A stretch of 32,252 bases of DNA, taken from Dirinaria sp. TL-2023a (lineage: Eukaryota). The notes below the pieces were generated by a model. That model was not told the origin of the DNA, searched no databases, and was given only the letters and a program-made list of their open reading frames with translations. Positions 6,305-27,916 of the stretch are shown here, piece after piece. Each line of letters begins with the position of its first letter. Positions within the stretch are counted from its first letter, which is position 1. The DNA is taken from NCBI GenBank assembly GCA_051941275.1, contig JAVEBF010000083.1, forward strand, positions 1 through 32,252. The letters are read 5' to 3'. The position numbers and the translations under genes are program-made.

Positions 6305-7386
6305 CCCTACTTGACAGGAAAGCAACTCGCGCAGCCCTAATATTGCGGCAATGATGGTTGGGCGATCTTGGTGCTCCGACTGCTATCGTCGCTCGTGTAG
6401 TGGTTGCTCCGTTATAGGCCGAAAGAACCTGGCCAATCTCTTCTGGGGTGGGGCCTCGTTGCTCTAGCCGAGTGCCAGACAGACCATCCATCTGGCAGAG
6501 CCATAACGACATTTGTCAATCTACACAAACGGCTGCATCACACTTCAACAGTAGAAAGCAGAGCTCTGGATTTTGAGGCTATGGCAGGCGGTGGCCCCTT
6601 GGCGTATGTCGAGCTACAATTGTCGGCGTTACGGATCTATAGCGTTCTGGTTGGAAATAGAAGCCCTCATTGATTTAAAAGACGTTCAAATATCGACACA
6701 CGTCGAGAGCGACATCGATCGACTTCTTTCGAGCGAGCCTTCGGACCCTACTGATGCGAAGAAAAATACTCTGGCGTTTGTTGCTGTTGACGATGATTCT
6801 GATACGCTGACTGTATAACATTAGCTGATAATCGCATCGCAAATCGTCATTCGATGAAGAAAATAGCATTGCCATTTGAGTATAGAGATACCGGGTTCGT
6901 AGATTTCTACTCAAGGCGACATCTTCTGGTGAACCCGGACAGGGTAACCGCACCGCGATGACCGTGTCACTATAACCAGCCCGCAAAACGTGAAATCTAT
7001 ATTCTATATAATCTATACTCAAGATTAATTCACGTTACCTAAATCCGCTCTCGGCTTTCTGATATCTAACGCTCTAGTAGGGTGTTAGTCCTGACAAAGG
7101 CTTAGTGACGAAATGAAGGAACATCAGTACATCAACGAGAAGTCATCGTCAATCTTCGATATTCCTTCAACAAATTAAGGATTCTCTAGGCTTTGCTTTG
7201 AAGCGACGCAAAGAGCCGACGCAACGGTGATTTGAAAATCGGCGAGTAAAAAGCTTCATGCCTCAACGCATCTGATCTATTCATGTGTGAAGCATGATTA
7301 ATCACATATTTAAGCATTGGAAAATACGCCTCGTGATATTATTTCTTTCCCCTCTTTCCTTCCCTTTCTTGTCCTATACAATTGTC

Positions 7387-24679: not shown

Positions 24680-26184
24680 TCACATCTGGTTCTCTGGCCG
24701 CAACCCTCTATCCAAACGTCAGAAAGAATTAAATGTCGAGCAGATAAGAACTTACCTGACAGCCTTCCCAGCACGCCATATTTCCAGGTCCCGTATTTGC
24801 TGCATCTCCTGTTCATACTTCTGTCGATAGTCGGATTGAGAATTGAAGTCCAGCGATCTTTGCGTCTCCTTGCCATCTTTTACACTATCATATAGCTCAT
24901 TGAACACCGGCTTCAGGGTATCCTTGAATTTAGAAGACCAGTCTGCAGGAATTCAGCATGATTCAGGCCCTCAGAGGTTGTTGGGATAGACATACCAATT
25001 GCTCCGCGCCTCGCTGTGGTGGAGCAAGCCGCATACATCCAATCCATCCCGTTCGCACCAATCAAAGGGTACAGGCTCTGCGTGGCCTCTTCAACTGTTT
25101 CGTTGAAGGCTTCACTTGGGCTGTGGCCGCGCTCGCGCAAAACCTCATACTGCGCAAGAAACATGCCATGAATACCACCCATCAAGCAACCGCGTTCGCC
25201 ATACAGATCTGAGTAGACTTCCTTCTCGAATGTTGTTTTGTATAAGTATCCGCTGCCAACTGCCACGCCCAGAGCGACGGCCTTCTCTTCGGCTTTCCCA
25301 GTGACGTCCTGATATACCGCTACCGAGGAATTGATGCCTCTTCCCTCCTTATAAAGCGACCGAACAGTCCTACCAGAACCTTTGGGCGCGACAAGAATTA
25401 CGTCAATATCTTTGGGTACGTCGACTTTAGTAAGGTCCTTGAATACCGGGGAAAATCCATGAGAAAAGTACAAGGTCTAAAGCGTCAGCCAAAAGAAGCC
25501 AAATGCAATGCTGATCAAGCCATACCTTGCCTTTGGTCAGCTGTGGTTTGATAGCCGGCCATGTTTCGCTTTGTGCAGCGTCGCTAAGCAGGTTCATAAT
25601 CACTGTACCCTTGGATATGGCTTCGTCAACTTCAAAAAGATTGGTACCAGGTATCCAGCCGTCATTTTGAGCCTCATTCCAGGATGCACCGTTCTTCCGA
25701 ACACCAATGATGACGTTCAAACCGTTGTCTCGTAGATTAAGTCCCTGGCCATGACCTTGCGACCCGTACCCAATTAAGGCCAGGGTATCATTCTTGAAGT
25801 ATTCCTGTAAGCCAAAATCAGCGAAAGGCTCAGATATCCAACCTATCAAGCCGACCGGCGCTGAATAGCCTATGACATGGTTTCAAACATACCAGCAGCT
25901 TCGATCTGGGCCAATCCTCGCGCTCTGAGAGCTTGTCAGCAGGACAACCACATTGCTAGACAGGGGCGCTATCTACCATAGACAGTTTCTTTTTGACCAG
26001 CGAAGTCTATCTGTTTCAGTCCTCGAGACTGTATTGTTGCCTGGCTGACAATGGGTTTCCAAGGTGCTGCAAACCCAGCTCTTGACTTGGTCAACGCTGA
26101 GACGAAGCTTCTCTTGTGCGCTGGAGTTGCCAATTGGCGGGTCAATGGCGATCTGAGGGCACGACTGAAGCTTCGGGAAGCCAT
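24680..26184 (-). CDS. ILV5: Mitochondrial ketol-acid reductoisomerase; exons 26184-25977, 25924-25893, 25804-25526, 25476-24996, 24942-24756, 24707-24680
   Basis: Arg/Ser-rich presequence, then RGLKQIDFAG..ETVYEREDWP, LIGYGSQGHGQGLNLRDNG, SHGF, VAPKGSG, SDLYGERGCLMG, FNETVEE, CSTTARRGAIDW, and terminal EIWRAGKAVRGLRPENQM*. Confidence 0.98.
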
Positions 26185-26626
26185 ACTGCGAAGTGAGAAG
26201 GAAACTTTAGGATATCGCAATCCACAGTAGTGGTGGGTTTCGTCCAAGGTAAGATTTGGGAGGGTCGTCCAAGAGCTCAAATAATTCTAGCTCTCTCGCC
26301 AAGCCTCCGATGATCGGCCTCGTTCAAACCCTAGAAAACCCCTTGATTTCAAAATACCCCTTCAATCACTCGCAAAATAAGTGAAGGAGCTTAACAATTA
26401 TCAGAACACAATAGTACCTTTGCAATTAAGGATAGACATAGAGCCTTCTTGGGCATTACCTTGTTCATAACTCAATTCCCCGTTCGGGCCAGGCGGCTGC
26501 TCTTTCTTCAGCTGGTTGAATGTAGGGTTCCGCCGGACCTCGCTTATTTTCCGCCCACAAGGAATTTGATATCGAGCTCCCAGCCGCTAAACTTCCAGCA
26601 AACAGAACAGCACCGCAAACGCCAAC
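26185..26626. promoter_or_regulatory. Compact divergent promoter region shared by ILV5 and RACK1/CPC2
   Basis: 442 bp between oppositely oriented ATGs; contains AAACCCTAG (26326-26334) and TAGGGTT (26523-26529). Confidence 0.55.
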
Positions 26627-27916
26627 ATGTCTGAGCAATTGGTGATGAGAGGTGTGCTCGAGGGCCACAGCGGCTGGGTTACCAGCTTGGCGACCTCGCT
26701 GGAAAAGTCGGTTTCTATATTTTCCATCACCCGATATTACAGAAATCATAGCAACGAGAGCTAACTACGATTTGGTATATAATGTAGCCCAAACATGCTC
26801 CTCTCAAGCAGCCGCGACAAGACGCTCATCATCTGGAATCTGACTCGCGATGACCTGAATTACGGCTACCCGAAGCGAAGCTTACACGGTCACTCCCACA
26901 TCGTCTCCGATTGTGTATGCCGTCTTTTTCCCCACAGAACCCTCCTTCCCTCCCTCATCCCCTATTAATCGAGAATTAGGTGATTTCCTCGGACGGCGCC
27001 TACGCTCTATCAGCGTCCTGGGACAAGACTCTTCGTCTCTGGGAACTGGCAACTGGTGTCACCACCCGCCGCTTCGTGGGCCATAACAATGATGTCCTCT
27101 CTGTTTCCTTCTCTGCCGACAACCGCCAGATTGTCTCCGGATCGCGCGATCGTACCATTAAGCTTTGGAACACTCTCGGGGACTGCAAGTACACCATCAC
27201 CGACAAGGGCCATACCGAGTGGGTGTCCTGCGTGCGCTTCAGCCCAAACCCTCAGAACCCGGTTATTGTGAGCGCGGGATGGGATAAGCTTGTCAAGGTA
27301 TGTAGGACTTGTCTTAAATGGTCGAAGAGATGAATCAGAGGATGCTATGCAACGTTTACGTATTTGCTACTTCAGAGCTTTCGAGCAATGAGACAAACCT
27401 ATCACCGGCGCACTGATGATATTCAATTTACCCCAAATCCCGCGAACATCAATCATTCAATCAGGTACTGATGCTGATTGATCGACAAAGGTCTGGGAAC
27501 TCGCATCCTGCCGCATTCAAACCGACCACATCGGACACACTGGCTATATCAACACCGTAACCATCTCCCCTGATGGCTCCCTATGCGCGTCCGGCGGCAA
27601 GGACGGCACAACCATGCTCTGGGATCTCAACGAGTCCAAGCACCTCTACTCACTTACCGCCGGCGACGAAATCCACGCTCTTGTCTTCTCTCCGAATCGC
27701 TACTGGCTTTGCGCCGCTACCTCCAGTTCAATCATCATCTTCGATCTCGAGAAGAAATCGAAAGTCGACGAGCTGAAGCCTGAGTACACCGCGGTGGGCA
27801 AGAAGAGTCGGGAGCCGGAATGTGTGAGTTTGGCTTGGAGCGCGGACGGACAGACGCTGTTTGCTGGCTATACGGATAACCTCATCCGCGCTTGGGGCGT
27901 GATGGCGAGAGGTTAG
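26627..27916 (+). CDS. CPC2: RACK1 / G-beta-like WD40 40S ribosomal protein; exons 26627-26706, 26788-26914, 26980-27297, 27491-27916
   Basis: [108 protein letters not shown]1/Asc1/Cpc2 signature. Confidence 0.98.
27331..27425 (+). ncRNA. snR24: Box C/D snoRNA U24 (snR24/SNORD24) in intron 3 of RACK1/CPC2
   Basis: Intron 27298-27490 is the gene's longest. It contains variant C box AGGATGC (27339-27345), guide TATTTGCTAC (27361-27370, antisense to LSU rRNA GTAGCAAATA), D' CAGA (27373-27376), GCT-TTCG-AGC hairpin, C' ATGAGA, D box CTGA (27413-27416) and terminal stem TGAATCA/TGATATTCA. Yeast U24 is hosted by the ASC1 intron. Confidence 0.9.

Follow-up and report, generated by a model that had tools for sequence, protein, structure and literature searches.

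The box C/D snoRNA U24 of S. cerevisiae (snR24) is a double guide, in which AAGAUCU serves Cm1437 of 25S rRNA. In an alignment of 45 fungal U24s, 17 budding yeasts retain this guide intact, and Yarrowia, three fission yeasts and 24 Pezizomycotina rows have lost it (van Nues 2011, PMC3116282). The function of U24 is split between two snoRNAs, as stated by Liu 2009: in N. crassa, Am1430 is assigned to the intronic CD51 and Cm1418 to the intergenic CD50, and human U76 is the functional counterpart of CD51 and S. pombe U24b (PMC2780460). A comment in a supplement table for C. thermophilum names Cm1420 (PMC12723226); if this is taken as the C1437 equivalent, the modification itself appears to survive. 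In the alignment of fungal U24s, the UAUCACC remnant of the lost guide carries the mark L1444-38, for an accessory contact by pairing with 25S 1438-44 (van Nues 2011, Fig. S1, PMC3116282). Beyond U24, 14 of 68 C/D families have, besides a conserved guide, a lineage-specific target on the other element (Canzler 2018, PMC5824354); U24, CD_50 and CD_51 are unnamed in the main text of that study, and its Supplemental Table S14 may list them. Gains of new targets are usually inferred from single clades, where chance matches are possible.

The U24 locus described here, from the lichen fungus Dirinaria, resembles N. crassa CD51 and S. pombe U24b in being intronic, in its D' guide, CAGA and AUGAGAC, in having no Cm1437 guide and in a D side that ends CGCA-CUGA (PMC2780460). 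In contrast to CD51, whose D side is without an assigned target in Liu 2009, the Dirinaria D side is a perfect 10-bp complement of the 25S L1 stalk, and its box C reads AGGAUGC, unlike that of CD51 (PMC2780460). With S. cerevisiae U24/SNORD24 it has in common the D' half, the C' box and the distal UAUCACC, and with intact-guide U24 loci the host intron, whereas AAGAUCU is absent. The extra base-pairing elements of van Nues 2011 (PMC3116282) reuse a second-guide region beside the methylation site, as is likewise the case here; no Pezizomycotina row of that alignment has GG before box D, and the new complement is not shown there. The second targets of Canzler 2018 (PMC5824354) belong to the same class of event, but a gain of the Dirinaria type is recurrent rather than clade-wide. 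Our search of the literature, largely confined to papers outside subscription, turned up no report of a new target for U24 or of snoRNAs in lichens.

A reduced U24 in the third intron of RACK1

The window, by which we mean the whole stretch of 32,252 nucleotides that was analysed, contains the RACK1/Asc1/cpc-2 gene with the following features.

26627 to 27916, + strand: RACK1 gene, four exons (26627-26706, 26788-26914, 26980-27297, 27491-27916)
26627 and 27914 to 27916, + strand: RACK1 start ATG and stop codon
27298 to 27490, + strand: intron 3 (GTATGT...AAAG), host of the snoRNA
27334 to 27337, + strand: 5' arm of the terminal stem, AUCA, pairing with UGAU at 27417-27420
27339 to 27345, + strand: box C, variant AGGAUGC
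27348 to 27351, + strand: UGCA element 3' of box C
27360 to 27372, + strand: D' guide for 25S Am1449/Gm1450 (N. crassa Am1430), 12-bp duplex
27373 to 27376, + strand: box D', CAGA, as in U24 (van Nues)
27388 to 27394, + strand: box C', AUGAGAC, as in U24 (van Nues)
27400 to 27406, + strand: UAUCACC remnant of the Cm1437 guide, also positions 7-13 of the putative new guide
27402 to 27411, + strand: putative D guide, positions 11 to 2, UCACCGGCGC, with G27408 as the +5 base
27413 to 27416, + strand: box D, CUGA
27466 to 27478, in intron 3: branch-point candidates, about 55-60 nt 3' of box D

In a protein comparison, the last RACK1 exon is 99% identical to RACK1 of Letharia and Pyrenodesmia. Judged by RACK1 protein identity and by lichen-sample runs that share parts of the region (0.09-0.20 of its words), the host fungus is a Lecanoromycete lichen former. 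A putative ketol-acid reductoisomerase gene at 24900-26190 (-), which we take to be ILV5, lies head to head with RACK1 at 26627 (+); other frames of the window, named by eye, are an MFS transporter, an ankyrin, an NRPS-like reductase and serine racemase-like and SRAP-like proteins.

An 87-nt box C/D snoRNA occupies 27334-27420 of the window, inside intron 3, with boxes C and D near its ends, a short terminal stem and internal D' and C' boxes. Box C differs from the consensus at two positions; AGGAUG is present as box C in N. crassa CD50 (PMC2780460) and in the Ater and Aapi U24 rows of van Nues 2011 (PMC3116282). The location in RACK1 and the D' guide for 25S A1449/G1450 are those of U24, and the retained D' guide together with a D side of CACC plus YGC(N) is the arrangement of single-guide U24b/CD51; the double-guide SNORD24 family (RF00069) does not include it, by the lack of AAGAUC and of a gathering score. 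Going by these boxes, guides and location, the element is a U24 orthologue in its reduced Pezizomycotina form, of the N. crassa CD51 and S. pombe U24b type. The sequence-only reading had recognized an intronic U24 in RACK1, and boxes, D' guide and host intron all bear it out; the D' half, TATTTGCTACTT-CAGA at 27361-27376, is intact and the D side reads TATCACCGGCGCA-CTGA at 27400-27416, both as it reported. The yeast U24 sequence that it gave agrees with the S. cerevisiae row of van Nues 2011 (Suppl. Fig. S1, PMC3116282), where an rRNA complement is also marked at the UGCA element. This UGCA co-occurs with a D-proximal YGC; its pairing partner is probably the D-proximal YGCA or 25S.

The D' guide is identical to that of N. 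crassa CD51 and forms 12 bp with the 25S of L019, a contaminant fungal locus, at -16.7 kcal/mol. Among the matches listed, all 56 Pezizomycotina-like loci have G at the 5' base of this guide (27360) and 35 of 37 others have A; this base matches the opposing 25S base (C or U), as seen in L019 and L001. The snoRNA would be excised from the intron and then assembled into a snoRNP, in which the D' guide would direct Am/Gm at 25S 1449/1450, helped by the CACC remnant. Its free fold is not more stable than that of shuffled sequences (z 0.72).

A search of the intron against Rfam, for which the sequence-only reading had suggested the SNORD24 model as a check, gave no match, either at the gathering score or at E up to 10. 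RF00069 matched 7 of 20 fungal test loci, all of the intact-guide type, and reached its gathering score in one of the 20; the window and the Pezizomycotina-type loci (0 matched) were missed, and U24 is therefore likely to be unannotated in many fungal genomes. A model of sequence alone, built from 28 intact-guide U24 loci, found the intron as its sole match in the window (E 8e-08), a detection that is partly circular because the training loci had been fetched with the D' half. The alignment to this model ends after CACC, the point at which the guides diverge.

Loss of the Cm1437 guide and a complement to the L1 stalk

Scanning metagenomes with the D' half yielded at least 115 loci, giving 116 sequences with the window, and RACK1 exon codons flank the equivalent intron in 93 of the 116. 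The 23 without RACK1 exons were excluded from the counts; none of them, among the matches listed, is of the GG type described below. We call Pezizomycotina-like the 56 loci among the matches listed with at least 88% RACK1 protein identity to the window. Eight of the 23 excluded loci (L041, L063, L068, L072, L073, L081, L101 and L132, among the matches listed) carry an intact double-guide U24 outside RACK1, about 200-280 nt upstream of the RACK1 start, on the opposite strand and head to head with it, and thus U24 has left the intron in some fungal lineage.

AAGAUC, the guide for Cm1437, occurs in 0 of 56 Pezizomycotina-like loci versus 35 of 37 others among the matches listed; CACC is kept in 50 of the 56. 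The D guide of the window no longer fits C1437, as had been noticed. The proposal that this rewrite is specific to the Dirinaria genome fails, since the loss is common to all 56 loci among the matches listed and is published: by this distribution, the Cm1437 D guide is lost in the Pezizomycotina stem. The distal TATCACC does pair with 25S 1438-44 as proposed, a fit already published as accessory pairing (PMC3116282). We rejected a change of the host 25S at C1437 as the cause, for the canonical site is retained in L019, L188 and L189 and is the one to which N. crassa CD50 pairs (PMC2780460). Also discarded was a perfect copy of the Cm1437 guide decamer at 6364-6373 (-), as neither a C nor a D box flanks it; when one mismatch is allowed, the decamer has 9 matches in the window versus 2.1 expected.

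Where the old guide stood, a new GC-rich complement adjoins box D, as the sequence-only reading had it. Its +5 base, G27408, faces a C both in the 25S L1 stalk and in 18S helix 10. The rRNA for these comparisons came from 27 GTDB prokaryotic records that match the fungal 18S motif (L002-L028, mostly small contigs, contamination), one of which, L018, has its match inside a 932-kb archaeal MAG contig; 4 of the 27 genomes also supplied 25S L1-stalk loci (L188-L191). Twenty-three further contaminated genomes gave only short bacterial-type L1-motif matches and no further fungal 25S. Viral contigs (IMG/VR) held no U24, no fungal 18S and one eukaryotic 25S piece, with 44 L1-motif matches, none fungal by context, and 0 for a longer L1 motif; plasmid and phage collections gave no L1-motif match. 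Two IMG/VR contigs, L001 and L185, contain stretches resembling eukaryotic large-subunit rDNA.

At the L1-stalk site (H77/H78) all four 25S loci read GGCGCCGGUGAAAUACC, and the Dirinaria guide pairs with it by 10 of 10 Watson-Crick pairs over positions 2-11 in 4 of 4 loci, which look Sordariomycete and are not the host's own 25S; no GG guide was found among the Sordariomycetes sampled. The predicted +5 target is the first C of CCGG at the H77/H78 junction (Rfam RF02543 position 2486). In L188 it lies 1021 nt further 3' than the C1437 equivalent, and by offset it would correspond to about yeast position 2479. The Rfam consensus structure leaves target positions 4-11 unpaired. The duplex has 0 mismatches under the methylation-guide rule cited in PMC5389715 (7 or more pairs, no more than one mismatch, no bulge, Watson-Crick at +5). 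The UCACC of the remnant also fits GGUGA of the L1 stalk, so that a change from AAU to GGC (three transitions) completes the 10-bp duplex. Nop1 on the C/D motif would then 2'-O-methylate the L1-stalk C opposite guide position 5.

The L1-stalk duplex has -21.7 kcal/mol over positions 1-11, the 18S duplex -18.0. Across some 5300 nt of 18S, 5.8S and 25S, a duplex at least as stable as the former is formed by 5 of 4096 proximal hexamers (3 of 384 GC-matched), always at the L1 site. PLEXY defines the core as positions 3-11. An all-Watson-Crick core is present in 8 of 56 Pezizomycotina-like loci among the matches listed, in 7 of the 8 at the L1-stalk C. The 25S base opposite position 7 varies: the Rfam consensus has a weak A, and the figure text for C. 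thermophilum apparently has A too (scrambled text, our own parse; PMC12723226); with A there, the L1 duplex falls to -15.5 with a core mismatch. Predicted duplexes are often unmethylated, with 67 of 362 captured sites in Gumienny 2017 (PMC5389715).

Recurrence of the GG state

The D-proximal state GG[CU]G was found in 11 of 56 Pezizomycotina-like loci among the matches listed. Their nearest named RACK1 proteins, a coarse guide, are from Lecanoromycetes, Chaetothyriales, Dothideomycetes and Leotiomycetes. In a tree built from RACK1 exons, with 61 rows (55 Pezizomycotina-like loci, L065 and five outgroups; L121 was too short and was omitted), the GG state needs 5 changes, of which at least 4 are forced by the starred branches, with the backbone weak (21 of 58 branches open). 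A single change occurs in 0% of 200 bootstrap trees, and GG as one clade is rejected with p-AU 5e-07 for a group chosen once a first tree was available. The GG state is shared by L044, the window's sister (97/94), and the lichen relatives L103, L115, L042 and L105 carry AAUGCA. GG is absent from 45 of 56 loci among the matches listed, including the close lichen relatives L103 and L115, and none of the 24 Pezizomycotina rows named in van Nues Fig. S1 has it (PMC3116282). Since most relatives are without GG, an L1-stalk guide must be dispensable; that GG has arisen at least four times in Pezizomycotina suggests selection. The tree cannot tell gains from losses, and gains are preferred because AA is ancestral in U24 and no named van Nues row has GG.

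Among the matches listed, all 11 GG loci conform at the L1 site to the core rule of one mismatch at most, 10 of them being free of mismatches, and in these 10 the guide changes relative to this site are G-U wobbles or fall at positions 1-2. At the 18S site 10 of 11 pass and 1 of 11 is mismatch-free. A GC bias as the source of GGC was not supported, for GG and other loci are equal in GC3 (0.75 vs 0.75) and flank GC (0.45 vs 0.45). A template-switch origin from the CACCGGUG palindrome would predict GGUG, which is present in only 1 of 11 GG loci among the matches listed. Rfam searches of four GG-type loci returned no informative match and none to SNORD102; a weak Afu_294 match on L112 belongs to a separate snoRNA with a different D' guide. 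Free drift of the segment among relatives, named in the sequence-only reading as a refuting outcome, holds for 45 of the 56 loci and not for the 11 of the GG type (matches listed).

Weighing the possible targets

The evidence leaves evenly balanced whether a known snoRNA has here a plausible, recurrent new target, its D guide being addressed to the 25S L1 stalk. The fuller proposal is that the guide freed by the split was reprogrammed independently at least four times, in four filamentous classes, to one L1-stalk ribose, and that its palindromic core may also methylate 18S helix 10; this is a serious possibility that we would still place a little short of even. Repeated reprogramming to one ribose would be eased by the leftover accessory element, which is already half of the guide. 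Against it stands a rather unlikely, by no means negligible, alternative in which U24 is a single guide only, its D side accessory, GGCG a neutral wobble-compatible state, the rRNA fit coincidental and no new methylation made. On that account CACC and two purines pair with 25S 1438-44, and YGCA closes a stem with the UGCA after box C. An accessory role of the D side is published (van Nues 2011, PMC3116282, Fig. S1 and section 8), the Dirinaria element pairs with the 25S 1430s region at -12.6, equal to its AAUGCA relatives, and GGC is only three transitions from the commonest state by changes that are wobble-compatible with 25S 1438-44. The 56 Pezizomycotina-like loci among the matches listed hold 38 different D-proximal strings, with the intermediates AAC, GAC, GAU and GGU all present, and, given UCACC, 10 of 256 tetramers (about 4%) yield an all-Watson-Crick core anywhere in the scanned rRNA. 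A 5' YGCR and a D-side YGC co-occur in non-GG rows (26 of 27 vs 3 of 17, matches listed), a hint of an internal stem that falls to about 3 of 4 independent pairs (p 0.25, non-significant). Neutrality accounts less well for the distribution of states: GGC is found in four lineages versus one each for AAC, GAC, GAU and GGU and 0 for AGC and AGU (matches listed), all GG lineages point to one single site, and L049 and L123 have lost position 2 and retained positions 3-6. With 64 free states and 20-40 lineages, a rough assumption, the chance of at least four lineages is 0.0002-0.003, without GC bias; under saturation of the eight RRY states it is 0.02, or 0.065 without the window's lineage. In a Dothideomycete-like clade, a CGCC/GGCG hairpin explains the GGCG letters equally well, and L054 retains the hairpin with a core mismatch at the L1 site. 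In that clade, five loci (L054, L071, L086, L091 and L113) have CACC duplicated, with a GCC/GGC or CGCC/GGCG hairpin possible around a 6-nt loop. L037 and L111 have GCG/CGC where most have GCA/UGC, a possible compensatory change (cf. window 27348-27351 and 27409-27412).

The sequence-only reading proposed 18S as the new target of the D guide; that this is the main target, in helix 10 and with methylation of C278, we consider unlikely. The Pezizomycotina 18S segment that the reading gave, UGCGCCGG, is real, occurring in 22 of 27 fetched fungal 18S loci with variants in 5 (many of the 27 represent one contaminant), and the duplex can be drawn as it described, in helix 10 at C278 (L005 numbering): 8 pairs, an A-C mismatch and 5 pairs, with 9 of 10 Watson-Crick at positions 2-11. 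The guide rule allows it with one mismatch, as in 10 of 11 GG loci among the matches listed, and in L071 a G at position 9 abolishes the mismatch. This duplex is stronger than expected by chance in a pool that lacks the 3' third of 25S, where it is equalled by 3 of 4096 proximal hexamers. Once this third is added, the 25S site beats 18S with its mismatch-free 10-bp core (not in the host's own 25S), so that the duplex scan, while finding the 18S complement, makes 18S probably not the best target. The A-C mismatch lies at core position 9 in 10 of 11 GG loci (matches listed), the L1 site is stronger over positions 1-11 in 10 of 11 among the matches listed, and the 18S target sits inside a GC-rich helix, H10 in the C. 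thermophilum figure (PMC12723226). Over 15 nt the 18S duplex is slightly the better (-22.7 to -23.7 vs -22.5 kcal/mol), and 18S C278 may therefore be a weaker second substrate of the same D guide. A contig of lichen run X5 spans the 18S site with one other letter, apparently near the contig end, but that run shares 0.09 of the window's words and may be another species; X4 gave two short 18S pieces with 2 and 7 other letters, and X1 and X2 none (all compared with L003). A fit of the AAUG/AACG types to 18S helix 45 was set aside, as it rests on an L005/L019 variant from which the C. thermophilum figure differs (PMC12723226). Very unlikely, in our view, is a complement that was selected without methylating, as a chaperone-like contact with the L1 stalk or 18S helix 10, or for a target among unscanned RNAs (snRNA, tRNA, ETS). 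Recurrence indicates selection without saying for what, a single palindromic core is complementary to a site in each subunit, SSU and LSU, and the scanned pool covered 18S, 5.8S and 25S; yet the register (position 1 free, 2-11 paired, Watson-Crick at 5) is exactly of the methylation-guide type, and no positive evidence for another target was found. Taken together, the earlier observation is confirmed, and its interpretation, read against these pairings, is partly supported.

We return to the L1 stalk as the preferred target. The human C/D guide SNORD102 serves a neighbouring L1-stalk base, Gm4042 (PMC9941101), though gene and host are unrelated and the target is a G; human Cm4054 (C4032/4054 primers, PMC6856654) and Arabidopsis Um2494 (PMC8583080) also lie in this segment. 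These neighbouring modifications indicate that the segment is a C/D substrate elsewhere. The exact register of SNORD102 relative to it is our assumption. To our knowledge, budding yeast has no L1-stalk Nm.

If the L1-stalk reading is wrong, the locus is an ordinary U24b missed by Rfam, and strong predicted duplexes arise easily from inherited half-guides. If it is true, the fungus would have an L1-stalk modification with known human and plant neighbours, and repeated reprogramming would mean that an rRNA modification was gained convergently and is distributed patchily, even within the lichen relatives. Between close relatives, a perfect guide is switched on or off by three transitions, and its presence recurs. 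Should methylation follow the letters, U24 of filamentous fungi would offer a natural, testable case of rRNA modifications arising from accessory pairing elements.
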